This document shows positions 3,366-52,132 of a DNA stretch of 64,000 nt, one piece after another. The notes under the pieces are model-generated. The model saw only the letters and a program-made list of their open reading frames with translations. It did not search any database and was not told the DNA's origin. The translations under genes were made by a program, and so were the position numbers. How positions within the stretch are numbered: the first letter of the stretch is position 1; every line of letters begins with the position of its first letter. The stretch lies in NCBI RefSeq assembly GCF_055900595.2, contig NZ_CM148325.1; one strand, 5' to 3'.

Positions 3366-4778
3366 TTACTTCCGCAGTTCAGCAGTCCGCTTCTTACCAA
3401 TAAACAACCAGCCCAACCCCAGCGCGATAAACCACAGCGGGGTAACCAGCAGCGCCTGGCGAGTGTCATCTTCCAGTGTCAGCAACACGACCACGAACAC
3501 AAAGAACGCCATACATACCCAGCACATCAGCTTGCCGAGCGGCATCTTGTAGATCGACTTCTCATGCAGATGAGGTCGCTGTTTGCGATACACCAGGTAT
3601 GAGCAAAGGATAATCGTCCAGACGAACATAAACAGAATCGCGGAAACAGTCGTGATCATCGTGAACGCGCCAATTACACTTGGATTCACATACAACATCA
3701 CCACGCCGCCGAGCAGACAGATACAAGAGAAGGTCAGCCCTTTCGCGGGCACGGCGCGCTTAGAAAGTTTAGCGAACGCTTTCGGCGCAACACCTTCCTG
3801 GGCCAGACCAAACAGCATACGGCTGGTAGAGAAGACGCCGCTGTTAGCGGAAGACGCCGCAGAGGTCAGCACCACAAAGTTGATTACGCTGGCAGCCGCA
3901 GGCAAACCCACCAATACAAAAAGTTCAACGAACGGGCTTTTCTCCGGGACTACTGAACTCCACGGCGTCACGGACATAATCACAATCAGCGCGAAGACGT
4001 AGAACATAATGATACGGATCGGAATGGAGTTAATCGCGCGTGGCAGTGATTTCTCCGGATCTTTGGTTTCCGCAGCGGTTGTACCGACCAGCTCAATCCC
4101 CACGAAAGCGAATACCGCTATCTGGAATCCGGCAAAGAAGCCACTTAAACCTTTCGGGAACCAGCCGCCGTCATTCCACAAATGCGCAAACGACGCTTCC
4201 ACACCGGTCGGTGACTGGAAGTGCATCATGACCATGATCAAACCGACAACAATCAGTGACACGATGGCGACAATTTTGATCATCGCAAACCAGAACTCCA
4301 TCTCACCGAACATTTTCACGGTAGCGAGGTTGAGCGTCAGCAGCAGCACTATCACCGCCAGCGAGGCGACCCAGTCGGAGAGATCGGGGAACCAGAACTG
4401 AGCATAGGCCGTGATGGCCACCACGTCCGCCATACCGGTAACCACCCAACAGAACCAGTAGGTCCAGCCAGTAAAATACCCTGCCCACGGCCCCAGTAGA
4501 TCGGAAGCGAAGTCACTAAAAGATTTGTATTCCAGATTCGAAAGCAGCAATTCCCCCATTGCCCGCATCACGAAAAAGAGCATAAAACCGATGATCATAT
4601 AAACGAAGATGATCGACGGTCCGGCAAGACTGATTGTTTTACCGGAACCCATAAACAGCCCTGTACCAATGGCCCCACCAATGGCAATAAGCTGGATATG
4701 TCGGTTTGTGAGATTGCGCCGTAGCGACTGTTCAGCCGGAGCCTGTTCTTCGGCAACGACTTTTACCTGATCTACCAT
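3366..4778 (-). CDS. cycA: D-serine/D-alanine/glycine:H+ symporter CycA (APC family)
   Basis: 470-aa polytopic membrane ORF recognised as E. coli CycA. Confidence 0.93.
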   Translation of the reverse strand: MVDQVKVVAEEQAPAEQSLRRNLTNRHIQLIAIGGAIGTGLFMGSGKTISLAGPSIIFVYMIIGFMLFFVMRAMGELLLSNLEYKSFSDFASDLLGPWAGYFTGWTYWFCWVVTGMADVVAITAYAQFWFPDLSDWVASLAVIVLLLTLNLATVKMFGEMEFWFAMIKIVAIVSLIVVGLIMVMMHFQSPTGVEASFAHLWNDGGWFPKGLSGFFAGFQIAVFAFVGIELVGTTAAETKDPEKSLPRAINSIPIRIIMFYVFALIVIMSVTPWSSVVPEKSPFVELFVLVGLPAAASVINFVVLTSAASSANSGVFSTSRMLFGLAQEGVAPKAFAKLSKRAVPAKGLTFSCICLLGGVVMLYVNPSVIGAFTMITTVSAILFMFVWTIILCSYLVYRKQRPHLHEKSIYKMPLGKLMCWVCMAFFVFVVVLLTLEDDTRQALLVTPLWFIALGLGWLFIGKKRTAELRK

Positions 4779-5086
4779 GTTTTTTTCTTCCTGTACCTGT
4801 CTGTGTTGTTCAGGCTCTGCGGCCTTTAGTCAGTCTATGATACGACGAATCTGTATCGGGACTCATCGATATTAGGTAACAATACGCGGGATGAATACTA
4901 AGATTTAGATCTAATGTTAATTTTATGTTTAAAGTGAGTGTCATATCACGGTGATAACGCGAAACAGCTCACAAAAATACACGCTTACGTGGTCTTTGCA
5001 ACACAAAATAGCGCCATTTGGCAAACTGAAGGGTTTATTGCTGAATGCCTGCTCCCCTCTGGCTCGAGGGGAACAGAATGCGCTGC

Positions 5087-5924: not shown

Positions 5925-6563
5925 ATGCCCGGGCGCTTTGAACTAAAACCAACCCTGGAGAAAGTCTGGCACGCGCCGGACAATTTTCGCTTCATGGACC
6001 CGCTACCGCCGATGCATCGTCGGGGGATCATTATTGCCGCTATTGTATTGGTGGTCGGATTTCTACTCCCGTCTGATGATACGCCAAACGCGCCGGTGGT
6101 GACGCGTGAAGCACAGTTAGATATTCAGTCGCAATCACAACCGCCGACAGAAGAACAGCTGCGGGCGCAATTAGTCACACCACAAAATGATCCTGATCAG
6201 GTGGCTCCGGTCGCTCCAGAACCGATACAGGAAGGCCAACCGGAAGAGCAGCCGCAAACCTCGCAAGTGCAACCTTTCCAGCCAGATAGCGGAATTGACA
6301 ATCAATGGCGCTCTTATCGTGTCGAACCCGGTAAAACAATGGCGCAGCTGTTCCGCGACCACGGACTGCCCGCTACCGATGTCTATGCAATGGCGCAGGT
6401 AGAAGGCGCAGATAAGCCACTGAGTAATTTGCAAAATGGGCAGATGGTGAAAATCCGCCAGAACGCCAGCGGCGTGGTGACGGGCTTAACCATTGATACG
6501 GGAAATAATCAACAGGTCCTGTTTACCCGCCAGCCGGATGGCAGTTTTATTCGCGCGCGGTAG
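5925..6563 (+). CDS. ytfB: Cell-division-associated OapA-domain protein YtfB
   Basis: ATG at 5925 with AGGAGGA RBS (5913-5919); 212 aa; one TM helix then Pro/Gln-rich linker; in-frame upstream ATG at 5889 also possible. Confidence 0.85.
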
Positions 6564-7194
6564 ATGAAGGGTCAACCAGAAGCCAGCTAAGGATCGTCTC
6601 TTTGATGACCTTACGCCTGGCTTCCAGTGCCTGCGGTGAAACCATACTGATGTGATAAACCAGGCCAAGCGTATGTTGGTTGATCAAATAATATCCTCCA
6701 AGAGCAGCAATATTAATATTCACCTGCAACGGGTCGATATCTGGCTTAAAAATATTGCGCCGTTTGCCTTCAGCTAATAATGACTCCATTAACTGTAAGT
6801 GTGCGTGGTTAATTTCTAAAAGGCGCTGTGATTTTGCATAATGCACCCCTTTACTCTGGTTTTCACTATGCACAATTTTTAAAAACCAGGGGTTAGCAAT
6901 GTAATAATCCCAGGTGAAATCGATAATTTTCTCAATGGCTTTTTGTGGCGGAAGACCTGAGAAATCAAGGGATTTTTCTTTTTGCCGAATATCATTCCAG
7001 GTATATTCCAGCACTTCGATAAATAAATTTTCTTTATTACCAAAGTGATGATAAACCGTCTGTTTACTGCACTCCGCGGCCTTGACGATATTATCGACTC
7101 TGGCCCCTTCGTAACCATATTCGGCAAATTCATTAACCGCACATAACAACAGCTTTTCCTTCAGGCTTTGTACGTTGCTGGTATCAAGATACAT
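6547..7194 (-). CDS. TetR/AcrR-family transcriptional regulator, divergent from the downstream operon (possibly the full-length counterpart of the K-12 ytfA fragment)
   Basis: N-terminal HTH region [48 protein letters not shown] typical of TetR family; start set at ATG 7192-7194 (215 aa); upstream in-frame start at 7254 possible; low GC. Confidence 0.8.
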
Positions 7195-7316
7195 TCCGCT
7201 TCCCCACGTCTTCTTCGTGATGACTATCTTAACCCGATTTGTTAGAAGCTCCACTAAAATGGCTAAAAACTCGCAATTTCATCGGGTTATCAAATGCTCT
7301 GTGATCATTATCGCAT

Positions 7317-7338
7317 ATCAACCAACTAGATGGTTGAT
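7317..7338. promoter_or_regulatory. Candidate TetR operator: perfect 8-6-8 palindrome ATCAACCA-actaga-TGGTTGAT between the divergent regulator and SDR genes
   Basis: Palindrome read directly from sequence, about 70 nt upstream of the SDR start codon and 120 nt upstream of the TetR gene start. Confidence 0.5.
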
Positions 7339-7405
7339 CTTTCTTGCCACACATTGCAAGCTAATCGTCACTTAAGGAAATAATATTCAAAAAGAGGGTT
7401 ATTGT

Positions 7406-8197
7406 ATGAAGTCAACACGTCCTGTTGCTGTCATCACTGGAGCCGCACGTGGTATTGGAAAGGGCTGTGCACTGGAACTTGCGCGTGGCGGATTTAATCT
7501 GCTGATTAATGATCGTCCGGATGCCGACAGCGTAGAAAAATTACATGCCACACAACAAGAATGTCTGGCGGAAGGCGTGGAAGTGATTTGCTTCCCTGCT
7601 GATGTTGGCGATCTCTCCCTTCATGAAGAGATGCTCGACGCGGCGCAAAACCAGTGGGGACGTCTGGACTGTCTACTCAACAACGCAGGCATTTCAGTGA
7701 AAAAACGCGGTGACCTCCTCGACCTCGAACCAGACAGCTTCGACCAAAACATTGCCATTAACACCCGTGCGCCGTTCTTCCTTGCTCAGGCATTCAGTAA
7801 GCGATTACTGGCACAGCCGAAACCGGAAGCAGAACTGCCGCACCGCTCGATTATTTTTGTCAGTTCCATAAACGCCATCATGCTGGCGATGAATCGCGGC
7901 GAATATACCATTGCCAAAACTGCCGTCTCCGCCGCAGCTCGCCTGTTTGCCGCTCGCCTTTGCAATGAACAAATTGGCGTTTATGAAGTGCGCCCTGGCC
8001 TAATCAAAACCGATATGACCATTCCGGCAACGGCTTATTACGACGAACTGATTGCTAAGGGGTTAGTGCCGTGGGGACGTTGGGGTTATCCGGCTGATAT
8101 TGCCTCAACGGTCCGCGCGATGGCGGAAGGCAAACTGATTTACACCTGTGGTCAGGCGGTCGCCATCGACGGCGGCTTAAGTATGCCGCGCTTCTGA
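7406..8197 (+). CDS. Short-chain dehydrogenase/reductase (SDR) family oxidoreductase
   Basis: 263 aa; TGAARGIG cofactor-binding motif, NNAG, and catalytic Ser...YxxxK (YTIAK); RBS GAGGG. Confidence 0.85.
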   Translation: MKSTRPVAVITGAARGIGKGCALELARGGFNLLINDRPDADSVEKLHATQQECLAEGVEVICFPADVGDLSLHEEMLDAAQNQWGRLDCLLNNAGISVKKRGDLLDLEPDSFDQNIAINTRAPFFLAQAFSKRLLAQPKPEAELPHRSIIFVSSINAIMLAMNRGEYTIAKTAVSAAARLFAARLCNEQIGVYEVRPGLIKTDMTIPATAYYDELIAKGLVPWGRWGYPADIASTVRAMAEGKLIYTCGQAVAIDGGLSMPRF

Positions 8198-8206
8198 GGC
8201 TGAATC

Positions 8207-9049
8207 ATGAGAGATCTGTTACAACGCCCGGATTTATTCAGTATCAATACTGCGACACTGGGCTATAAAACACCGCTACCTGCCATTATTGATGCCTGCG
8301 CCGCACGCGGTATTGGCGCGATTGCCCCCTGGCGCAGGGAGTTACAGGGTGAAGATCTCCAACAAATCGCCCGCCAGCTTGCTGCCAGTAACATGAGCGT
8401 TTCCGGTTTGTGCCGTAGCACCTATTACACCGCGCCGACGCTGACGGAACGCAAACTGGCGATTGATGATAACCGCCGGGCGCTGGACGACGCCGCTGTA
8501 CTAAACGCCGCCTGTTATATGCAGGTGGTTGGCGGTCTGCCAATGGGAACAAAAGATCTGTACGAAGCGCGGGAACAAGTGAAACAAGGGATTCGCCAGT
8601 TGCTGCCACATTCGAAAGATGTCGGCGTGCCAATTGCGCTGGAGCCGCTGCACCCGATGACAGCTGCCGATCGCTCTTGCCTGTGCACGTTACGTCAGGC
8701 GCTGGACTGGTGTGATGAACTCGATCCCGATGGGGAGTTTGGCCTCGGCGTGGCGGTAGATGTCTACCACGTTTGGTGGGATCCGGATCTCGCCAGTCAG
8801 ATCCTGCGTGCCGGAAAACGCATCCTCGCGTTTCATGTTTCCGACTGGCTGGTGCCAACCACCGATTTAGTCAATGACCGGGGAATGCCGGGAGATGGCG
8901 TAATCAATATTCCGTCTATTCGTCGCCAGGTAGAAAATGCCGGATTTAACGGTGCTGTGGAACTGGAAATTTTCTCACCGTACTGGTGGCAGCAAGATAT
9001 TAACAGCACGTTGGATATTAGCGTCGATCGCATCGCGCATTATTGCTAA
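8207..9049 (+). CDS. Sugar phosphate isomerase/epimerase-like (xylose isomerase-like TIM barrel) enzyme
   Basis: 280 aa; family assignment from overall sequence character (judged by eye, less certain than neighbours); 9-nt gap after the SDR gene. Confidence 0.6.
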   Translation: MRDLLQRPDLFSINTATLGYKTPLPAIIDACAARGIGAIAPWRRELQGEDLQQIARQLAASNMSVSGLCRSTYYTAPTLTERKLAIDDNRRALDDAAVLNAACYMQVVGGLPMGTKDLYEAREQVKQGIRQLLPHSKDVGVPIALEPLHPMTAADRSCLCTLRQALDWCDELDPDGEFGLGVAVDVYHVWWDPDLASQILRAGKRILAFHVSDWLVPTTDLVNDRGMPGDGVINIPSIRRQVENAGFNGAVELEIFSPYWWQQDINSTLDISVDRIAHYC

Positions 9050-9052
9050 GGA

Positions 9053-9835
9053 ATGATCATGAGTGACCAACCCGTTCTGTTCAGCAGAGCGGCGGCTTCC
9101 TGCCGCCTGACATTGAACCGTGAAGATAAATGTCATGCTATTAATGAAGAAATGATCGAATCTCTCGACCATTATTTAAATGAAATTGAAAACGACACCA
9201 CATTACGATTAGTCGAATTAACGGCAACCGGCGATAAATTCTTTTGTGCGGGCGGCGATATTAAATCGTGGTCGGCCTATTCGCCATTAGATATGGGCAG
9301 AAAATGGATTAAACGCGGCAATGACGTTTTTAATCGCCTGCGCAACTTACCCCAATTAACGGTTGCGAATCTCAACGGTCATACCATCGGCGGCGGTATT
9401 GAACTTGCCTTGTGCTGCGATATTCGTATTGCCCGCCCCAGTGCGAAATTCTCTAATCCGGAAGTAATGCTCGGCATGGTGCCTGGCTGGATGGGCATTG
9501 AACGCGTGCTTAATCAGGTCGGTCCGGTGGTCGGTCGCCAGATGCTGATGCTGGGTAAACGCCTGACGGCGCAGGAAGCTCAGGCGGCGAATTTAATTGA
9601 TGAAGTGGTAGAAAAAGAACAGGTGGAAAGCTGGATGGCGAATCAGTTAGCGCAGCTGGAAAAATGCGGTCCGGTGGCGCTCGCACATATCAAGCAACTG
9701 ATTCTGGCTCTAGAAAATAAACATGCTGATTACCCGCACCAGTTACTGGCTGGATTAATGTCCGCCACTCAGGATTGCCAGCAGGCGACGCGCGCATTTG
9801 CCGAAAAAAGTAGCGTGAGCTTCCAAAATCAATAA
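9053..9835 (+). CDS. Enoyl-CoA hydratase/isomerase (crotonase) family protein
   Basis: 260 aa; FCAGGDIKSW and GHTIGGGIELALCCDIRIA crotonase signature segments; 3-nt gap after the upstream gene. Confidence 0.85.
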   Translation: MIMSDQPVLFSRAAASCRLTLNREDKCHAINEEMIESLDHYLNEIENDTTLRLVELTATGDKFFCAGGDIKSWSAYSPLDMGRKWIKRGNDVFNRLRNLPQLTVANLNGHTIGGGIELALCCDIRIARPSAKFSNPEVMLGMVPGWMGIERVLNQVGPVVGRQMLMLGKRLTAQEAQAANLIDEVVEKEQVESWMANQLAQLEKCGPVALAHIKQLILALENKHADYPHQLLAGLMSATQDCQQATRAFAEKSSVSFQNQ

Positions 9836-9844
9836 GGAAATTGT

Positions 9845-11386
9845 ATGCGTAAGATAACAACCGCCGAGACACTGGCGGCGCAAATTCAGGACGGCGCAAC
9901 CATTGCCATTAGCGGTAATGGCGGCGGCATGGTGGAAGCGGACCATATTCTGGCTGCTATTGAAGCGCGTTTCCTGCAAACCGGACACCCGCGCGATCTG
10001 ACATTAATCCACTCACTGGGCATTGGCGATCGCGACTGCAAAGGCACTAACCGCTTCGCTCATGCAGAGATGCTCAAACGCATCATTGCCGGACATTTTA
10101 CCTGGTCGCCCAAGATGCAGGATCTGGTGAAAAACAATGCTATTGAAGCCTACTGCTTCCCTGGTGGCGTAATTCAGGCACTGCTGCGGGAGATCGGTGC
10201 CGGACGTCCAGGGCTTTTTACCCACGTTGGGCTGGGATCGTTTGTTGATCCGCGCAACGGCGGCGGTAAGTCGAACGCTAGCAGCACTGAGGATCTGGTA
10301 GAACTGATTGAAATCGACGGTGAAACCAAACTTCGTTATCGCCCCTTCAAAGTGGACTACGCGATTTTGCGTGGCACTTATGCCGATCCGCGTGGCAACG
10401 TCAGCCTCGAAGAAGAGGCGATTGATATGGATAGCTATTCCATGGCGCTGGCAGCACACAACAGCGGCGGCAAAGTGTTCGTACAGGTGCGCGATGTGCT
10501 GGAAGCTGGTGCCATTGAACCACGCCGGGTCAAATTACCGGGCATTCTGGTTGATGGCATCGTTGAACACCGCGAACAACCGCAAACCTATCTTGGCGGT
10601 TACGACCTGACCATCAGCGGTCAGCATCGCCGTCTAAGTTCTAACGACGCAATTGAACTGGTTAGTCATCCGGTGCGCCGCCTGATTGCCCGTCGGGCAG
10701 CACGCGAACTGGTGGCTGGCGCTTCAACCAACTTTGGCTTTGGCATTCCCGGCGGCATTCCTGGGGTTGCACTGCGCGAAGGCGTGCCTTATCAAAGTTT
10801 ATGGCTGAGCGTAGAACAGGGTGTACATAACGGCATGATGCTGGATGATGCTCTGTTCGGCTGCGCCCGCAACGCCGATGCCATTATTCCATCACTCGAT
10901 CAATTCGAATTCTACAGTGGCGGAGGGATCGATATCACCTTCCTCGGCATGGGAGAGATGGATCAGTACGGTAACGTCAACGTCTCCCATCTCAATGGCA
11001 ATCTCATTGGCCCCGGCGGATTTCTCGAAATTGCGCAAAACGCCCGTAAAGTGGTGTTCTGCGGCACGTTCGACGCCAAAGGTAGCACGATTGATGTAAC
11101 ACCAGATGGCTTGCATATCGCCCAGTCAGGTCAAATCCCTAAACTGGTTACCCAGGTGGAAAAAATCACTTTTAGCGCCGCCTACGCACAGCAAAGCGGT
11201 CAGGAAGTGTTGTATATCACTGAACGTGCAGTATTCCAGTTAACAGCAGAAGGCGTTGAATTAATTGAAATCGCACCAGGTGTGGAGATTGAGCGCGACA
11301 TTCTGCCGCATATGGCCTTCCGTCCAATTATCAATCAGCCACGCCTGATGGAAAGTAGCCTGTTTACGCCGATGGAGGATGCATGA
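9845..11386 (+). CDS. Family-I CoA-transferase (fused alpha/beta, YdiF / propionate-CoA-transferase-like)
   Basis: 513 aa; N-terminus TAETLAAQIQDGATIAISGNGGGM and size match acyl-CoA:acetate/3-ketoacid CoA-transferases; RBS AAGGA. Confidence 0.75.
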   Translation: MRKITTAETLAAQIQDGATIAISGNGGGMVEADHILAAIEARFLQTGHPRDLTLIHSLGIGDRDCKGTNRFAHAEMLKRIIAGHFTWSPKMQDLVKNNAIEAYCFPGGVIQALLREIGAGRPGLFTHVGLGSFVDPRNGGGKSNASSTEDLVELIEIDGETKLRYRPFKVDYAILRGTYADPRGNVSLEEEAIDMDSYSMALAAHNSGGKVFVQVRDVLEAGAIEPRRVKLPGILVDGIVEHREQPQTYLGGYDLTISGQHRRLSSNDAIELVSHPVRRLIARRAARELVAGASTNFGFGIPGGIPGVALREGVPYQSLWLSVEQGVHNGMMLDDALFGCARNADAIIPSLDQFEFYSGGGIDITFLGMGEMDQYGNVNVSHLNGNLIGPGGFLEIAQNARKVVFCGTFDAKGSTIDVTPDGLHIAQSGQIPKLVTQVEKITFSAAYAQQSGQEVLYITERAVFQLTAEGVELIEIAPGVEIERDILPHMAFRPIINQPRLMESSLFTPMEDA

Positions 11387-13455
11387 GTCAGCTTGATGAC
11401 ACCCTCCTTGATGCGCTGACGCACGTCACTTTCCCGAAGGGTTTTGCACAGGCAGAACCCGCATGGGTTGTCACGGTAGACGGTGTTGATTACCCACTCT
11501 GGCAAACAGATGCCCTGGTAGTCGGCAGTGGTGCAGCCGGGCTGCGTGCAGCTGTGGAACTTAAGCGCCGCCAGCAAAATGTGCTGATCGCCACCGCCGG
11601 GTTATATATGGGGACATCGGCATGTTCTGGTTCCGATAAACAGACGCTGTTTACCGCCGCTACCGCGGGCAACGGCGATAACTTCGCCAAACTGGCAGAG
11701 GCACTGGCGAGCGGCGGCGCAATGGATCACGATACCGCTTATGTTGAAGCGGTTGGTTCCCTGCACACTCTTGGCGGGTTGCAATATCTTGGTCTGGAAT
11801 TACCGGAAGATCGCTATGGCGCAATTCTTCGTTATCAAACCGACCATGACGAAGCCGGGCGAGCAACCTCGTGTGGGCCGCGGACCTCAAGGTTAATGGT
11901 GAAAGTACTGCTGGAAGAAGTACAGCGTCTCGCCATTCCAGTGTTGACCAGTGCAACAGTAATTAAACTGCTGCATCAGCGTGACGAAAACGGTGAAGAC
12001 CGCGTGGCGGGGGCAATCCTCGCGACCGGTCATCGTGCCCATAACCCATGGGGGCTGGCAATTGTGACTGCGCCCAATGTGGTACTGGCAACAGGAGGGC
12101 CTGGCGAGCTTTATCGTGACAGTGTGTACCCACACAAATGTTTCGGCTCGCTGGGGCTGGCGCTGGAAGAAGGTCTGACGTTAACGAATCTGACCGAAAG
12201 CCAGTTTGGTATAGGCACGCCGCGCAGCACCTTTCCGTGGAATTTATCCGGGACTTATGTACAGGTGATCCCATACATCTATTCGGTGGATGCCGGGGGC
12301 AACGAGTATAACTTCCTCGCAGATTACTATCGCACCACCCAGGAGCTGGCTTCAAACATCTTCCGTAAAGGCTATCAGTGGCCGTTTCACGCCACACGAG
12401 TGATGGATTTTGGCTCCAGCTTGTTAGATATGGCAGTAGCGCAAGAGCAGCAATCAGGACGTCAGGTATTTATGGATTTCAATCGCAATCCTGAACCTGT
12501 GCCGGGTGACCTGCCGTTCTCATTAGATCGACTGGACGACGACGTTCGCGCGTATCTGGAAAATAACGACGCTCTGGCACCATCGCCCATCGAACGACTG
12601 CAACGAATGAATCCGCTGTCTATCTCGCTGTATAAGATGCACGGTTACGATCTCACCACGCAGCCATTGCAGTTTGCCATGAATAATCAGCATATGAATG
12701 GCGGCATTGAAGTGGATATCTGGGGGCAAACCTCCCTGTCCGGCTGTTTCGCCGTGGGGGAAGTTGCTGGCACACACGGCGTCACTCGCCCTGGTGGTGC
12801 GGCATTGAATGCCGGGCAGGTTTTTGCTGTTCGTCTGGCACGTTTTATTGGTTGCACGCAAAAACGTAATATTGATGGAGATATAGCACAGCTGGTAGCT
12901 CCGGCACTGGCTTCTATAAGAGAGATCATTACTCAGGCGCACGATAACGGGACCGGGATGCCGTTGTCGGTTGTGAGGGAAAAAATTCAGGCACGAATGT
13001 CTGACCATGCGGGATTTATTTGTCATGCCGATAAAGTCCGACGCGCCACTCGTGATGCCCTGCTATTGAACGAATTTGTGCAACGGCATGGATTGGCAAT
13101 CAAACATGTGGGTGAAGTTGCCGAGCTGTTTATGTGGCGGCATATGGCGCTGACTTCTGCCGCGGTATTAACACAATTAACGCATTATATTGATGCTGGT
13201 GGTGGTAGCCGTGGGGCGCGTATGGTTATTGATCCACAAGGCAAATGCCTACCACAAACTCGTCGCGGCGCAAAAGAAGAATGGCGTTTTCGCTCTGAAC
13301 TCGCTGAAGACAAAAATCACAAATTAACAATTCAATATTCGCAAGGTTCTTTTATTACCGAAGTAAAGTCTTTACGTATGCAACCGTGTATTAACGGTAT
13401 TTACTTTGAAAAAAACTGGCCAGACTTTTTAAAGGGAGACATTTACACACAGTAA
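11383..13455 (+). CDS. FAD-dependent oxidoreductase of the fumarate reductase/succinate dehydrogenase flavoprotein superfamily (soluble, stand-alone)
   Basis: 690 aa; ALVVGSGAAGLRAAVEL dinucleotide-binding motif after a ~45-aa N-terminal extension; C-terminal GEVAGTHGVTRPGGAALNAGQVFA resembles the FrdA/SdhA HGANRLGxNSL segment; start overlaps the CoA-transferase stop (ATGA). Confidence 0.8.
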   Translation: MSQLDDTLLDALTHVTFPKGFAQAEPAWVVTVDGVDYPLWQTDALVVGSGAAGLRAAVELKRRQQNVLIATAGLYMGTSACSGSDKQTLFTAATAGNGDNFAKLAEALASGGAMDHDTAYVEAVGSLHTLGGLQYLGLELPEDRYGAILRYQTDHDEAGRATSCGPRTSRLMVKVLLEEVQRLAIPVLTSATVIKLLHQRDENGEDRVAGAILATGHRAHNPWGLAIVTAPNVVLATGGPGELYRDSVYPHKCFGSLGLALEEGLTLTNLTESQFGIGTPRSTFPWNLSGTYVQVIPYIYSVDAGGNEYNFLADYYRTTQELASNIFRKGYQWPFHATRVMDFGSSLLDMAVAQEQQSGRQVFMDFNRNPEPVPGDLPFSLDRLDDDVRAYLENNDALAPSPIERLQRMNPLSISLYKMHGYDLTTQPLQFAMNNQHMNGGIEVDIWGQTSLSGCFAVGEVAGTHGVTRPGGAALNAGQVFAVRLARFIGCTQKRNIDGDIAQLVAPALASIREIITQAHDNGTGMPLSVVREKIQARMSDHAGFICHADKVRRATRDALLLNEFVQRHGLAIKHVGEVAELFMWRHMALTSAAVLTQLTHYIDAGGGSRGARMVIDPQGKCLPQTRRGAKEEWRFRSELAEDKNHKLTIQYSQGSFITEVKSLRMQPCINGIYFEKNWPDFLKGDIYTQ

Positions 13456-13547
13456 TTTTCAATATTTACTCTGTACCTGATTTTTATTGCCTATTACATG
13501 GAAATACCAACAACCAGGGTTTATTAATATAATTAAAAGGTTTAAAA

Positions 13548-14825
13548 ATGAATAAAATAAAGAATTATCGATGGCATATGATTGCCCTCGTATGCTTTAT
13601 CACTGTAATCAATTATCTGGACAGAACGGCGTTAGGTATTGCGGCTCCAACGATTATGGAGACAACCGGAATAACCAAAGAACAATATTCATGGATTGTC
13701 AGTGCATTCCAGTTGGCCTATACATTGGGGCAACCGGTAATGGGCTTCTTTATTGATACCGTGGGTCTGAAGTTAAGTTTTGCGATATGTGCCGCAATCT
13801 GGGGCCTGGCGACAATGGGGCATGCCTTGACAGGAACATGGTCAGGTCTGGCATTTATGCGCGCCCTGATGGGTTTCAGCGAAGCATCGGCAATTCCTGC
13901 GGGTGTAAAAACCGCATCAACATGGTTCCCGGCAAAAGAGCGTGGCGTGGCGACAGGTGTTTTCAATATGGGCACCTCACTCGGCGCGATGCTTGCTCCA
14001 CCGTTGATTGCCTGGTGCATTATGTTTCATAGCTGGCAATTTGCGTTTATTGTCTCAGGTAGCCTTGCTTTACTCGCGGCTTTATTTTGGTTCTTTTGTT
14101 ATAAAGATCCAAAAGATGCTAAACGCCTTTCTGATGAAGAGCGCCACTATATTGAGTCTGGGCAAGAACAGCATCTTAAAACAGATAAGAAAGAAAAAAC
14201 GTCAATCAAGCATATCCTCAGCCAACGTAATTTCTGGGGGATTGGCATCGCGCGTTTTCTCGCTGACCCGGCATGGGGAACCATTAACTTCTGGGTACCG
14301 ATTTTCTTCGTCGAAACGCTGCATTTTAGCCTGAAAGAAATTGCCATGTTCGTCTGGCTGCCTTTCCTGCTGGGCGATCTCGGCTGTTTAGCCAGTGGTT
14401 TTGTCGCGAAGTTCTTCCACGATCGCGGCGTGAGTTTAATTAACTCACGAAGAATTACCTTCACTATTGCAGCCGTCATTATGATGACGATTGGTCTGGT
14501 GAGTATTGTCGAAAATCCCTACATCGCCGTATTACTGATTAGCATTGGCGCATTCTCGCATCAATGTCTTTCTACTGTTGCAGCAACTCTGGGCGGTGAC
14601 CTATTCAAAAAAGACGAAGTAGCTACCGCTGTGGGTATGGCAGGAGCCTGTGCATGGAGCGGTCAGTTGATTTTCAACCTGTTTATCGGGGCATTCGTTC
14701 ACATTATTGGCTTCGCGCCGTTCTTTATTGCCCTGGCTTTCTTTGACATTATTGGTGCTATTGCGTTGTGGACGCTTATCAAAGTTAAAGATGAAGAACC
14801 ACAAGTACAGTTAGCTACCCACTAA
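13548..14825 (+). CDS. MFS transporter, anion:cation symporter (ACS) subfamily-like (ExuT/DgoT/GudP-type)
   Basis: 425 aa, about 12 TM segments; N-terminal RWHMIALVCFITVINYLDRTALGIAAP is characteristic of ACS-family organic-anion permeases. Confidence 0.8.
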   Translation: MNKIKNYRWHMIALVCFITVINYLDRTALGIAAPTIMETTGITKEQYSWIVSAFQLAYTLGQPVMGFFIDTVGLKLSFAICAAIWGLATMGHALTGTWSGLAFMRALMGFSEASAIPAGVKTASTWFPAKERGVATGVFNMGTSLGAMLAPPLIAWCIMFHSWQFAFIVSGSLALLAALFWFFCYKDPKDAKRLSDEERHYIESGQEQHLKTDKKEKTSIKHILSQRNFWGIGIARFLADPAWGTINFWVPIFFVETLHFSLKEIAMFVWLPFLLGDLGCLASGFVAKFFHDRGVSLINSRRITFTIAAVIMMTIGLVSIVENPYIAVLLISIGAFSHQCLSTVAATLGGDLFKKDEVATAVGMAGACAWSGQLIFNLFIGAFVHIIGFAPFFIALAFFDIIGAIALWTLIKVKDEEPQVQLATH

Positions 14826-14836
14826 TTATTTTAAAT

Positions 14837-14868
14837 AAAAACGCTATAATTGAGGTTATGGCGTTTTT
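14837..14868 (+). terminator. Intrinsic terminator after the MFS transporter gene
   Basis: Hairpin aaaacgctataa/ttatggcgtttt (one mismatch) with short loop, followed by a T-run, 12 nt past the stop codon. Confidence 0.55.
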
Positions 14869-15094
14869 AAAGAAGCTTGAGTTATCGAACCTAGCTTACC
14901 AACGCGTTGTCAGTCATCTCCCCCCTCCCTGGTGCATCGTTATATCCGTGATGAGCGATTTTTGATATTAATATCTTTCACCATCCGCTATTTTCACCAC
15001 TTCAGAAAACAAACTTATTTTTATTAATATCAATTCTTTTTCTTTGAACATTCAACTGCGATATTTGTAAAAATATTAAACAGGCAACAATAAA

Positions 15095-15889
15095 ATGACA
15101 TTACCAACAACTATTTATTCATTCCCCGCATATTTACCTCGTTTTTCGTCCACCGACAAACCAGCAAAACTAAAATTTCATCAATACGCACGCGCTACAT
15201 TACTGTCAAATCGTGGAAGAGATCATAATTGCGATGGCAGACGTACTGTTGAGATCCACAAACTAGATCTCTCAGACTGGCAAGCATTCAATAAGCTAGC
15301 GACGAGGTGTAATACTTACGATGGAATAACAATGAATGGTGATAATTCTTTTGGATGGAACCATGAAGCTACATTAGATAATATTCACGCCCAGAAATAC
15401 AATAAAGCTTACGCGGGTGCGCGGTTAACCGCAGAACTGAAATATTTATTGCAAGATGTCGAATCCTTCGAACCCAACAGTAAATACACAATACACGAAG
15501 TGGTTTTGGGACCTGGTTATGGTACTCCAGACTATACCGGCCAAACGATAGGATACGTTGTAACCCTTCCTGCCCAAATGCCTAATTGCTGGTCATCTGA
15601 ACTACCAACAATCGATCTTTATATCGACCAACTTCGCACTGTTACAGGCGTTTCTAATGCCCTCGGATTCATCATTGCTGCATTGCTAAACGCGTATTCT
15701 GATTTACCCCATGATTTGAAAATTGGTCTACGTTCCTTATCAAATTCAGCCGCAATCTACTCGGGTTTAGGTTTCGAGCGAGTGCCGCAGGACCGAGACA
15801 TAAGGAGTGATCGTATGCATCTAACGCCAGCAAACCATCCTGACTTATGGACACAAGAGAATGGTGAATGGATCTACTTGCGAAATTAA
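15095..15889 (+). CDS. yjfZ: Uncharacterised protein YjfZ
   Basis: 264-aa ORF, AT-rich, preceded by an AT-rich 270-bp intergenic region; size and position next to rplI match K-12 yjfZ. Confidence 0.75.
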   Translation: MTLPTTIYSFPAYLPRFSSTDKPAKLKFHQYARATLLSNRGRDHNCDGRRTVEIHKLDLSDWQAFNKLATRCNTYDGITMNGDNSFGWNHEATLDNIHAQKYNKAYAGARLTAELKYLLQDVESFEPNSKYTIHEVVLGPGYGTPDYTGQTIGYVVTLPAQMPNCWSSELPTIDLYIDQLRTVTGVSNALGFIIAALLNAYSDLPHDLKIGLRSLSNSAAIYSGLGFERVPQDRDIRSDRMHLTPANHPDLWTQENGEWIYLRN

Positions 15890-15911: not shown

Positions 15912-15938
15912 AAAACGCCGACCAATGGTCGGCGTTTT
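15912..15938. terminator. Bidirectional intrinsic terminator between convergent yjfZ and rplI (aaaacgccgacc-aatg-gtcggcgtttt)
   Basis: Perfect 12-bp stem whose A/T runs give a U-tract in both orientations. Confidence 0.75.
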
Positions 15939-51233: not shown

Positions 51234-51502
51234 TTCATCCACAGCTTGTGAATAAAAATAAAAACGCATTGCAATTCAAGGCGAATAAAATCGTCAAGTG
51301 ATCGACTCGACAAAACGAGATCTTAATTTTCAACCTATATATCAATAAGTTAAAAAAATACTATTCACCGTGCGAAGTTTCTTTGAAATTAAGATTACGA
51401 CATGAGGCTGTGGATAACTCTGTTTACAAGAGTTTGTCAGAGACAACAAAAACCAGCAATAACGCATCGCGTCGCTGTGGATATTTTATTGAGAGAAGAA
51501 TT

Positions 51503-51578
<76 letters not shown>

Positions 51579-51613
51579 TTGGGTGGTCTGTGCTTTGCAG
51601 CACTTTCAAATTT

Positions 51614-51689
<76 letters not shown>

Positions 51690-51846
51690 TTAATCTTCGT
51701 CTTTCGAACCGCTACTGCCTTGGCTGCCTTCACTCACCTTAGTCACTTACTTTTGTAAGCTCCCAAGGATTCGTTCAGTTGCCGCCTTGTCACAATTCGA
51801 AATACTGCGATTGGGTGGTCTGTGCTTTGCAGCACTTTTCAAATTT

Positions 51847-51922
<76 letters not shown>

Positions 51923-52132
51923 GTACTACTTAATTTTGCTTTCGTAATTTTCGCATTTCTGCGTCGTTACGGGAGGCGCATTATACGAGAAATCTTTTCC
52001 TCTGCAACCCCCCTAAAAATTTTTTTTTGAGTTTTTATCTCAAGTGCTGAAATTATCAGCAAGACGTTCAATTTAGCGTCAAAATCACGCCGCCGCAAGT
52101 GGATTCCGGCGCTTACGTGACCAGGAAAAATT

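Follow-up and report, generated by a model that had tools for sequence, protein, structure and literature searches.

A conserved palindrome beside ytfA is the probable operator of a TetR-family regulator of a CoA-dependent enteric operon

Results

A palindrome in the divergent ytfA-SDR spacer

We analysed a 64,000-nucleotide stretch of DNA (hereafter the 64-kb window) and find that the palindrome ATCAACCAACTAGATGGTTGAT, located in the 211-bp divergent spacer between ytfA and an SDR gene (7195-7405), is probably the operator of the adjacently encoded TetR-family protein YtfA, which would repress the operon running from the SDR gene to a transporter gene (Table 1). The arms are perfect over 8 bp and flank a 6-bp spacer, and because the central CTAG is symmetric too, symmetry reaches 10 of the 11 positions in each half. 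The initial annotation had described a perfect 8-6-8 palindrome at this place in the TetR/SDR spacer, and its sequence, arms and coordinates were all verified.

Table 1. Coordinates of the regulator, the operon and the proposed control elements in the 64-kb window.
Feature	Position	Strand	Basis or remark
ytfA-type TetR-family regulator, 215 aa, intact	6547-7194	-	Pfam, full-length alignment, RefSeq start
Predicted ytfA -10 hexamer, TAAGAT (minus-strand reading)	7226-7231	-	Predicted from conserved block; T7230 and A7231 invariant
CRP site, TGTGATCATTATCGCA	7300-7315	.	9/10 consensus positions; conserved in orthologues
8-6-8 palindrome, ATCAACCA-ACTAGA-TGGTTGAT	7317-7338	.	Proposed YtfA operator, full extent
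Nested 16-bp element, CCAACTA-GA-TGGTTGA	7322-7337	.	Register of family 7-2-7 consensus TCAACCA-NN-TGGTTGA
Predicted operon -35 hexamer, TTGATC	7334-7339	+	In right arm; predicted from conservation
Predicted weak operon -10 hexamer, CAAGCT	7357-7362	+	Conserved; distance to -35 fixed
Target operon, six genes	7406-14825	+	Pfam and NCBIfam scans
SDR	7406-8197	+	ATG at 7406
Xylose-isomerase-like TIM barrel	8207-9049	+	
Enoyl-CoA hydratase	9053-9835	+	
Fused CoA-transferase	9845-11386	+	
Fumarate-reductase-like flavoprotein, 690 aa	11383-13455	+	
MFS organic-anion transporter	13548-14825	+	

Taken alone, the symmetry is weak evidence. Of 5,000 dinucleotide-preserving shuffles of the spacer, 197 (approximately 4%) give a perfect inverted repeat whose arms reach 8 bp or more around a loop of 0-12 bp, so that the symmetry is barely above chance (p ~0.04), and the 64-kb window holds about 17 distinct inverted repeats of this kind. 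No second copy of the palindrome is present in the window at up to 3 mismatches. The symmetry statistic being insufficient, it is cross-species conservation that makes the palindrome significant.

The regulator matches Pfam TetR_N (PF00440) with an E-value of 2e-13 over residues 19-61 and TetR_C_29 (PF17938) with an E-value of 2.8e-30 over residues 83-201, the latter covering the entire profile, and it is 96% identical over its full length to an E. coli TetR/AcrR protein. RefSeq gives the same start (the minus-strand ATG at 7194) and the same length in E. coli H1, which is 99.8% identical over the ytfA-SDR region. Its closest solved structure is 3npi, an uncharacterised TetR protein (E = 8.5e-16). 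Published work names the gene ytfA; in the searchable literature, no binding, footprint or expression experiment on YtfA was found. Literature searches by gene name, RefSeq protein accessions and gene content likewise returned no functional study of the regulator or the operon. The gene order of the operon beside the regulator is identical in all enteric orthologues. Its TIM-barrel protein is close to the uncharacterised structures SMc04130 (3ju2) and 3qc0; literature reached via another relative of this protein, PDB code 7VPF, offered nothing useful on the operon. The flavoprotein has no PDB relative at an E-value of 1e-10 or better, and comparison with solved structures allowed no substrate to be assigned to the operon.

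The palindrome is the best conserved part of the spacer

We aligned 14 orthologous spacers from Escherichia, Salmonella, Citrobacter, Klebsiella, Lelliottia, Leminorella, Entomohabitans and a group with 58-65% identical regulators. The divergent layout is kept in all 14 loci, also in Leminorella and at two loci of the 58-65% group whose flanking genes are unrelated, and the spacer measures 204-233 bp, or 423 bp in Entomohabitans. In this alignment, the best conserved 22-bp stretch of the spacer begins at 7317-7321, and 7320-7338 contains 15 of the spacer's 29 invariant columns. Mean information is 1.74-1.85 bits in the palindrome versus 0.85-0.89 bits in its flanks. Compared with the 58-65% group, 17-18 of the 22 palindrome positions match, while the rest of the spacer is 40-42% identical. 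An inverted repeat in the control region is therefore co-conserved with the TetR regulator, the pattern of a TetR protein with its operator. Despite the shuffling result and the number of similar repeats in the window, a chance palindrome without function is a reading we would practically dismiss: the element is near-invariant across genera where the surrounding spacer falls to about 40% identity, and it is linked to one regulator clade, so that the conservation data already contradict chance.

Conservation is not even across the two arms. The left-arm block AACCAAC (7320-7326) is invariant and the outer three left-arm bases are not conserved; by contrast, the outer bases of the right arm are. 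The ytfA-SDR spacer contains no second conserved palindrome. A further inverted repeat, TAACCCGAT (7230-7238) with ATCGGGTTA (7281-7289), was considered as a second operator or looping site and set aside, given that its left arm overlaps the predicted ytfA -10 hexamer and that only TAAC...GTTA is kept across genera.

With an 8-bp stem and a 6-nt loop followed by CTTTCTTG, the repeat is called terminator-like in a consensus scan, with predicted hairpin energies of -9.1 kcal/mol (plus strand) and -10.5 kcal/mol (minus strand), at z = -3.3 to -4.2. It might accordingly be read as an RNA hairpin, acting as an intrinsic terminator, an attenuator or a stabilising stem-loop. However, only 3 of the 8 stem pairs are G-C, neither strand has a co-oriented gene ending upstream, the repeat lies upstream of both predicted transcription starts, and no Rfam family matches 7000-7600. 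Moreover, where the left arm has changed, as in E. albertii, Salmonella, Klebsiella and the 58-65% group, the right arm shows no compensating change, so it is the sequence that is conserved and not the pairing. We thus reject an intrinsic terminator on the pair count, the gene orientation and the uncompensated arm substitutions, and consider an RNA hairpin of any kind highly improbable.

The motif travels with the regulator clade

A related motif, TCAACCA-NN-TGGTTGA, flanks alphaproteobacterial homologues that are 33-40% identical to YtfA and lie beside different operons, which argues that the motif travels with the regulator. The SDR operon is absent beside these homologues; at the three loci examined, the neighbours are genes for an NMT1-type binding protein, an ABC permease, an amidase and an epimerase. 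The pattern [TC]CAA[AC]-N6-GTTG[AG] is found in the 400 bp preceding the TetR start at 15 of 19 loci with full-length homologues, but at none of 61 loci whose TetR genes are more distant. These loci are phylogenetically related, representing roughly 2 enteric and 6 alphaproteobacterial lineages, and the locus counts therefore overstate the number of independent observations. At seven listed alphaproteobacterial loci (L008-L011, L013, L016 and L020), two sites flank the TetR gene, often as the perfect 18-mer ATCAACCAACTGGTTGAT, and of 120 metagenome contigs with this exact 18-mer, 14 carry a TetR gene of the YtfA clade 45-240 bp away. YtfA and the motif-bearing homologues have the recognition helix (S/N)KQ(T/L)VYHHFGNKE in common. 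The loose family pattern has one further match in the window, at 10728 inside the CoA-transferase gene, which we set aside as an extra site, being conserved as coding sequence.

The family consensus has a 7-2-7 geometry, and its register in the window (the nested element in Table 1) is shifted by 2 bp relative to the 8-6-8 palindrome's centre. In most E. coli, the element reads CCAACCA-GA-TGGTTGA. The 58-65% group has CCAACTA-TT-TGGTTGA, one base apart from the TCAACTA-TT-TGGTTGA of the alphaproteobacterial locus L009. In the 7-2-7 register, the window site is symmetric at 5 of 7 positions and that of most E. coli at 6 of 7, whereas the alphaproteobacterial sites are often perfect. Given also that the outer three left-arm bases are not conserved, the 8-6-8 reading may differ from the true binding register. 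Because the perfect 8-6-8 repeat does not match the family geometry, part of its symmetry may be incidental, arising from the left arm's CAAC-CAAC repeat. The initial proposal that size and symmetry fit the operator of a TetR-family dimer thus gains comparative support in so far as the motif follows the regulator, but the geometry that goes with the family is 7-2-7.

A regulator with a similar box could occupy the site in place of YtfA, one candidate being RutR, a TetR-family protein found in all E. coli whose RUT box, 5'-TTGACCAnnTGGTCAA-3', is bound by a single dimer (PMC2475637). The RUT box is likewise a 16-bp 7-2-7 element with an ACCA-nn-TGGT core (PMC2475637), the geometry and core that also characterise the YtfA-clade consensus. 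We count 8 of 14 RUT consensus positions matched by the window element CCAACTAGATGGTTGA, among them the two reported to be most important; the weakest ChIP targets score comparably (7-9 of 14). The motif, however, strictly co-occurs with ytfA and its relatives and is gone where the island is gone, and in each orthologue and family member the TCAACCA half-site departs from TTGACCA at 2 of 7 positions. We therefore think it very unlikely that RutR or another such regulator, and not YtfA, is the cognate protein. The list of 20 RutR targets is mute on the palindrome because it was obtained in a K-12-type strain, and all that K-12 lineages keep is a TetR remnant, a pseudogene.

Occurrence in E. coli genomes

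The initial annotation had proposed a genome scan for additional copies and had regarded the palindrome as a handle for locating related operons. By BLAST, a 30-mer around the palindrome is present in 3143 of 5426 complete E. coli genomes, in a single place in each matching genome with one exception. Since a BLAST search with a 30-mer is blind to degenerate sites, this result refers to BLAST-detectable copies, and YtfA may still have a small regulon. Most of the ytfA-SDR query is carried by 3139 of the 5426 genomes; the carriers of the 30-mer are essentially the carriers of the island, and the motif is lost where the island is lost. With one BLAST-detectable copy in E. coli, the palindrome is a poor handle for other operons within the same genome, but it serves well to find the regulator's relatives in other taxa.

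The palindrome overlaps a predicted CRP-dependent promoter

The centre of a CRP site lies constantly 19-20 bp to the left of the palindrome centre. Matches to the CRP consensus amount to 8-10 of 10 positions in 13 orthologues; for locus L086, the site (TTTGAAACCCATCACA, 9 of 10) was read off the alignment. A CRP ChIP-seq peak of ETEC H10407 was assigned to TGTGATCACTATCGCA, between an ETEC-specific gene and ytfA, the reported peak coordinate being approximately 200 bp away from the assigned site (PMC4287617). We located TGTGATCACTATCGCA in the H10407 spacer, adjoining the palindrome, and the CRP site of the window matches it.

The predicted -35 hexamer of the operon reads TTGATC in 12 of 14 orthologues (by eye in the alignment for L086) and always lies 17 bp upstream of a conserved -10-like hexamer. 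The latter follows the pattern CA[AT]NNT, with the orthologue forms CATCTT, CATTTT or CATCGT; G7356, C7357, A7358 and T7362 are invariant in the 14-sequence alignment, and the start codon follows 39-46 nt downstream across orthologues. The transcription start is predicted near 7369. The CRP site centre would then fall at approximately -61.5, a figure that follows from the conserved -35/-10 prediction, and the operator would span about -52 to -31 of a class I CRP promoter. The palindrome thus overlaps the conserved predicted -35 hexamer, in agreement with the initial placement of the repeat in the promoter region. A generic consensus scan of 7100-7500 found no strong sigma-70 promoter, and none is expected since the promoter would be activator-dependent. 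Two other arrangements, a class II CRP promoter with a start near 7349 and a -10 hexamer at AATAAT (7379-7384), were rejected, as their hexamers are poor or unconserved beyond Escherichia and Citrobacter.

The outer bases of the right arm may be conserved as the -35 hexamer and not for repressor contact. Taken further, the whole conserved block could be mainly promoter architecture, namely the -35 hexamer plus a docking site beside CRP for the alpha subunit of RNA polymerase, with incidental symmetry and with YtfA binding elsewhere or not regulating the operon. The fixed 17-bp distance from TTGATC to the -10-like hexamer, the conservation of the outer bases on the right and not on the left, and a symmetry that by itself hardly exceeds the shuffled spacers all fit with this. 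It does not explain the invariant AACCAAC, which is not A/T-rich or UP-like and has no promoter role, nor why close motifs flank alphaproteobacterial TetR homologues in quite different promoter contexts. In addition, the 18-mer search retrieves TetR genes of the YtfA clade, and the spacer offers YtfA no alternative conserved palindrome. We regard promoter architecture as an improbable explanation of the block as a whole.

For ytfA itself, the predicted -10 hexamer reads TATGAT or TATAGT in orthologues. Autoregulation is common among TetR regulators. At this locus it is not evident, because some 108 bp separate the palindrome from the predicted ytfA start downstream of it; in alphaproteobacteria, on the other hand, autoregulation is implied by where the sites lie.

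Discussion

We propose that, without inducer, YtfA binds AACCAAC...TGGTTGAT as one dimer or possibly as two overlapping dimers. The right half-site would hold the operon -35 hexamer TTGATC, and the site would occupy the gap between this hexamer and the CRP site centred approximately 61.5 bp upstream of the predicted start. For these two reasons, bound YtfA would obstruct RNA polymerase at two points, sigma region 4 at the -35 hexamer and the alpha C-terminal domain beside CRP, leaving the SDR-to-transporter operon repressed. YtfA would be released by a ligand, for which the transported organic acid or a CoA-thioester intermediate is the most plausible candidate, and full expression would also need cAMP-CRP, giving a switch that responds to substrate present and glucose absent. 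In this scheme, we infer the promoter elements, the start, repression over activation, the register, the stoichiometry and the ligand.

Such a switch, with a repressor over the -35 hexamer of a CRP-dependent promoter, is of an ordinary kind, and it has not been described previously for YtfA. It resembles class I CRP promoters of lac-type logic in having CRP approximately 61.5 bp upstream of the predicted start, a weak -10 hexamer and a repressor site in the core promoter. Whereas the lac operator lies over +1, the candidate YtfA operator lies over the -35 hexamer and between it and CRP. As with TetR/tetO, AcrR, Bacillus FadR/YsiA and KstR2, the regulator is divergent from the operon it would control, and as with classical TetR repressors, a palindromic candidate operator in a spacer of approximately 200 bp overlaps core promoter elements. 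Unlike in these classical cases, we see no sign of an autoregulatory site close to the ytfA promoter. CoA-dependent enzymes are encoded in the target operon, as in those of FadR and KstR2, which respond to acyl-CoA. To our knowledge, the candidate YtfA operator sequence is unrelated to the tetO, KstR2 and FadR boxes.

YtfA resembles RutR in family membership, and its HTH region matches the RutR model weakly; we rejected orthology, with scores of 36 bits versus a cut-off of 368 for TIGR03613 and 28 versus 230 for PRK15008. It differs from RutR in its C-terminal domain (TetR_C_29) as well as in the half-site. While RutR has approximately 20 chromosomal targets, many of them intragenic, the YtfA motif has one copy per genome by BLAST, and unlike the RUT box, the window site has an extra, out-of-register perfect half-site, which makes the 8-6-8 palindrome. 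The best NCBIfam model for YtfA, that of Bacillus FadR, scores 44 bits versus a cut-off of 200 and was likewise rejected. A KstR2 model is absent among the NCBIfam matches listed for YtfA; 'KstR2' is a source-given label on some YtfA orthologues in databases and nothing more. Judged by sequence, YtfA is not orthologous to any characterised TetR member.

The extra half-site recalls QacR. Within its 22 bp, the palindrome accommodates two overlapping 16-bp pseudo-sites 4 bp apart, TCAACCA-AC-TAGATGG (7318-7333) and CCAACTA-GA-TGGTTGA (7322-7337), each with one consensus and one weak half-site. Two QacR dimers bind one long palindrome, IR1, cooperatively, each reading a non-palindromic half (PMC2952853). 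IR1 is 28 bp long, unlike the 22-bp YtfA palindrome; the likeness is one of sequence pattern only, and the alphaproteobacterial YtfA-clade sites, unlike IR1, fit a single dimer. It is nevertheless conceivable, if rather unlikely, that in the enteric lineage an ancestral 7-2-7 operator for a single dimer gained its out-of-register half-site by duplication of CAAC, and that two YtfA dimers cooperate in a QacR-like manner to give a sharper switch, gating an unrecognised CoA-dependent pathway for a gut-derived organic acid. If true, an inducer found through the YtfA operator would expose a new catabolic route.

YtfA is one of the few E. coli TetR-family regulators without a known target, site or ligand, and as ytfA is a pseudogene in K-12, the model strain is uninformative. 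Our analysis now assigns to it a candidate operator, a probable target in the six-gene CoA-dependent operon with its own transporter, and CRP as a putative co-regulator. Together, these give a cheap route to the substrate of the operon via inducer screens with an operator-reporter or purified YtfA, and TCAACCA-NN-TGGTTGA predicts target genes for the whole TetR clade in Proteobacteria. The value lies in annotation and in enabling experiments, the mechanism itself being textbook and not a conceptual advance. The target operon is present in approximately 58% of complete E. coli genomes as well as in Salmonella, Citrobacter, Klebsiella and others, and has been lost from K-12.

A perfect palindrome in the ytfA-SDR spacer

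The window derives from E. coli, and its TetR-family gene is the ytfA of the literature. The ORF listing gives a longer regulator frame with a GTG start; the ATG at 7194 is the start in all orthologues and is also the one used by RefSeq for an E. coli with 99.8% identity across the ytfA-SDR region. Across the spacer, the short-chain dehydrogenase (SDR) gene is followed on the same strand by 5 further genes, with gaps of -4 to 92 bp.

The perfect 8-6-8 palindrome that the initial annotation had placed in this spacer is confirmed: 2 arms of 8 bp, complementary without mismatch, flank 6 bp, and because the central CTAG is also symmetric, 10/11 positions per half are symmetric. The 64-kb window holds no other copy at up to 3 mismatches. 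By itself, the symmetry is only marginally unusual. An equal or better inverted repeat (perfect, arms of at least 8 bp, loop of 0-12 bp) was obtained in 197 of 5000 dinucleotide-preserving shuffles of the spacer, and approximately 17 distinct repeats of this kind are present in the window.

Features of the ytfA region and other elements of the window
Feature	Position	Strand	Remarks
ytfA, TetR-family gene	6547-7194	minus	215 aa; domains TetR_N and TetR_C_29
Divergent spacer	7195-7405		211 bp; holds the palindrome
Predicted ytfA -10	7231-7226	minus	TAAGAT, TATGAT or TATAGT; conserved in the alignment
Second inverted repeat	7230-7238 / 7281-7289		TAACCCGAT ... ATCGGGTTA
CRP site	7300-7315		TGTGATCATTATCGCA; directly left of the palindrome; 9/10 CRP consensus positions
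Palindrome	7317-7338		ATCAACCAACTAGATGGTTGAT; read from sequence
Element in 7-2-7 register	7322-7337		CCAACTA-GA-TGGTTGA; centre 7329.5
Predicted operon -35	7334-7339		TTGATC; inside the right arm; in 12/14 orthologues
SDR gene	start 7406	plus	
Xylose-isomerase-like TIM-barrel protein gene		plus	follows the SDR gene
Enoyl-CoA hydratase gene		plus	
Fused acyl-CoA:acetate/3-ketoacid CoA-transferase gene		plus	
Fumarate-reductase-like flavoprotein gene		plus	690 aa
MFS transporter gene		plus	relative of D-galactonate (organic-anion) transporter family
Loose family pattern	10728-10743	minus	TCAACCAACTTTGGCTTTGG, includes GTTGGTTGA; inside the CoA-transferase gene
Island 3' module	13548-15889		MFS transporter and yjfZ
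13-bp-arm inverted repeat	15912-15938		AAAACGCCGACCAATGGTCGGCGTTTT; between yjfZ and rplI
89-nt repeat, 3 copies	51493-51925	minus	palindrome CGACCTTGGCAAGGTCG in each

Conservation across orthologous spacers

Orthologous loci were collected from Escherichia whittamii, E. albertii, two further E. coli lineages, Klebsiella spallanzanii, Entomohabitans, Salmonella, Citrobacter, Lelliottia and Leminorella, together with 3 contigs whose regulators are only 58-65% identical to YtfA. All retain the divergent TetR / SDR-TIM-ECH-CoA-transferase layout; the flanking genes differ in Leminorella and in 2 loci of the 58-65% group. In an alignment of 14 spacers, the best-conserved 22-bp stretch begins at 7317-7321, and 7320-7338 holds 15 of the spacer's 29 invariant columns (AACCAAC, A7328, TGGTTG and T7338). 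The mean information in this alignment is 1.74-1.85 bits for the palindrome versus 0.85-0.89 bits for its flanks. The 58-65% group matches the palindrome at 17-18 of 22 positions, with the remaining spacer 40-42% identical, i.e., near random. Such conservation excludes a chance origin of the palindrome, to which we assign a negligible probability.

The outer 3 bases of the left arm are variable (AT-C, AC-C, TC-C, TA-A, TT-A) with no compensating changes in their right-arm partners, so that it is the sequence that is conserved and not the pairing potential. These uncompensated substitutions speak against a terminator or hairpin, which was flagged by a scan and has a predicted stem of -9 to -10.5 kcal/mol. 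Given also that no co-oriented gene ends upstream, that the palindrome lies upstream of both inferred transcription starts and that there is no Rfam match, this explanation is extremely unlikely.

One spacer (locus L086, with regulator P0079, 62% identical and labelled Salmonella enterica) has an extra lone half-site, AGATGGTTGTA, approximately 70 bp upstream of the main operator on the ytfA side.

The motif accompanies the YtfA clade

Full-length homologues with 33-40% identity are found in alphaproteobacteria (Ferrovibrio, Oceanibaculum, Tistrella, Belnapia, a Xanthobacteraceae MAG and others). No SDR operon was found beside them, and in the 3 loci examined the neighbours are genes for an NMT1-type binding protein, an ABC permease, an amidase and an epimerase. 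Closely related motifs lie directly upstream of the TetR start (for example TCAACTATTTGGTTGA, ATCAAACATTTGGTTGA and ATCCAACCATTTGGTTGGTTGAT; perfect form ATCAACCAACTGGTTGAT). In 7 listed loci (L008-L011, L013, L016 and L020), a second site is located just downstream of the TetR gene, before the next genes, with sites at about 3876-3919 and 4612-5069 of these loci. The alphaproteobacterial regulon thus differs from the enteric one, although the DNA motif is the same.

Of the 19 loci with full-length homologues, 15 have the pattern [TC]CAA[AC]-N6-GTTG[AG] in the 400 bp before the TetR start; these 19 loci are related by descent and correspond to closer to 8 than to 19 independent lineages. None of the 61 loci of more distant TetR genes has it there, and its background in them is approximately 1.7 sites per 100 kb. 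In a reverse search, at least 120 metagenome contigs match the exact 18-mer ATCAACCAACTGGTTGAT; among the 120 matching contigs listed, 14 have a TetR of the YtfA clade 45-240 bp from the 18-mer. YtfA and the motif-bearing homologues have the recognition helix (S/N)KQ(T/L)VYHHFGNKE in common. The scan for further copies suggested by the initial annotation locates a 30-mer around the palindrome in 3143/5426 E. coli genomes, essentially the island carriers, with a single occurrence per genome in all but one. Taken together, the upstream-motif counts, the reverse search, the common helix and the single copy make it probable that the element is the cognate operator of the YtfA clade, which is about the strongest comparative evidence possible; conservation and linkage to the regulator clade thus support the earlier assignment as a TetR-family operator. 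Cross-binding by RutR is conceivable from box similarity, the window element matching 8/14 RutR consensus positions by our own count, but would leave the strict co-occurrence of the motif with ytfA relatives unexplained and is very unlikely. The clade-wide recognition motif predicts targets in other Proteobacteria.

The loose family pattern is also present inside the CoA-transferase gene, where its conservation in orthologues is probably that of the encoded peptide.

Binding register

The family-wide consensus is a 16-bp palindrome, TCAACCA-NN-TGGTTGA, i.e., two 7-bp half-sites with a 2-bp gap (7-2-7). The RUT box of RutR (TTGACCAnnTGGTCAA) has the same geometry (PMC2475637) and was concluded to be likely occupied by a single dimer. 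In this register, the element reads CCAACCA-GA-TGGTTGA in most E. coli and CCAACTA-TT-TGGTTGA in the 58-65% group, one base off the Oceanibaculum site. The 8-6-8 palindrome, centred at 7327.5, has the same right half-site; its left half-site, (A)TCAACCA, is consensus-perfect and lies 4 bp further out, the left arm being in effect a CAAC-CAAC repeat. A single dimer may bind the 7-2-7 core, with the extra half-site as a lineage-specific addition, or two dimers may bind in overlapping registers 4 bp apart, each pairing a strong half-site with a weak one, resembling QacR on its operator IR1 (PMC2952853). The 7-2-7 core is more likely to be what is conserved, because the outer left bases are degenerate in the 58-65% group and because the -35 hexamer could account for the invariance of the right outer bases. 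The two-dimer reading stays alive because A7320 and A7321, outside the 16-bp core, are invariant.

A CRP site and predicted promoters

A conserved CRP site, absent from the initial annotation, adjoins the palindrome. In the orthologues, 13 sites score 8-10/10 and the fourteenth (L086; TTTGAAACCCATCACA) scores 9/10 as read from the alignment, with a constant 19-20 bp between CRP-site and palindrome centres. In CRP ChIP-seq of ETEC H10407, TGTGATCACTATCGCA is the predicted site of a peak that lies between ytfA and an ETEC-specific gene (PMC4287617). We find TGTGATCACTATCGCA exactly in the H10407 spacer, adjoining the palindrome; the reported peak coordinate is approximately 200 bp off.

Exactly 17 bp downstream of TTGATC is a hexamer in which A at position 2 and T at position 6 are invariant, as is the G just before it (hexamer CAAGCT in the window; CATCTT, CATTTT or CATCGT in orthologues), and the SDR start codon follows 39-46 nt after it. 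We infer that TTGATC and CAAGCT are the -35 and a weak -10, with transcription starting near 7369. A generic scan reported no promoter in this region, as a weak -10 would explain. With the predicted start, the CRP site would be centred at about -61.5, which is the class I arrangement known from lac, and the operator would span roughly -52 to -31. Pure promoter architecture would leave both the invariant, non-A/T-rich left block and the motif beside distant homologues unexplained, and is an unlikely account of the conserved block.

From these positions, the most likely mechanism would be repression by -35 occlusion at a class I CRP promoter: activity would require cAMP-CRP, YtfA on the operator would occlude the -35 hexamer and the alpha-CTD docking zone beside CRP, and a ligand would lift this block. 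ytfA appears to have a promoter of its own. The operator is approximately 108 bp upstream of the predicted ytfA start, and the enteric arrangement therefore gives no sign of autoregulation; in alphaproteobacterial loci, by contrast, one site abuts the TetR start.

The spacer also contains a second perfect inverted repeat, with 9-bp arms 42 bp apart; the predicted ytfA -10 falls partly in its left arm. In E. whittamii the arms are TAACCTGAT ... ATCAGGTTA and appear to have changed in a compensatory manner, but no more than TAAC...GTTA is retained in other genera.

Relation to known regulators

YtfA has the domains, gene layout and conserved operator of a local TetR-family repressor. It scores 36 bits against the RutR equivalog (cut-off 368) and 44 bits against Bacillus FadR (cut-off 200) and is a member of neither; its best PDB relative is an uncharacterised protein, and KstR2, the label on some orthologues, is a source-given name only. 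By sequence, YtfA is outside every characterised equivalog. We found no study of the YtfA site, target or ligand, or of operon function, and the probable operator is thus a very familiar device in a case not described before. YtfA, until now an orphan among E. coli transcription factors, is thereby linked to CRP, to an operator and to a CoA-dependent operon of six genes, one of them for a transporter; operator and repressor together are a reagent for an inducer screen.

The ytfA island

The island lies between ytfB and rplI, and most of the ytfA-SDR query is present in 3139/5426 complete E. coli genomes. Structure-database comparison of the TIM-barrel and flavoprotein components gave no clue to the operon substrate. 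In most E. coli, the operon ends 3' in a TRAP transporter (small permease, large permease, binding protein). This is one of two alternative 3' modules, the other being the MFS organic-anion transporter plus yjfZ (DUF2686) of the window, found in 289/5426 E. coli genomes; the two TRAP-type loci examined (L001, L089) are without yjfZ. In the window, the transporter/yjfZ segment shares 99.8% identity with strain RMDEC465; the ytfA-SDR segment shares 99.8% with strain Z0117EC0005 and only approximately 92% with the majority E. coli allele. C600, a K-12 derivative, has only the 3' part of the regulator gene left, and the K-12 layout, in which a ytfA remnant stands with yjfZ, appears to have arisen from the MFS version by deletion.

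yjfZ and rplI converge, and the strong inverted repeat between them resembles an intrinsic terminator acting in both directions. Elsewhere in the window, the 89-nt repeat looks like a tRNA gene by its CCA tail and T-arm; we take the 3 copies to be tRNA-Gly.
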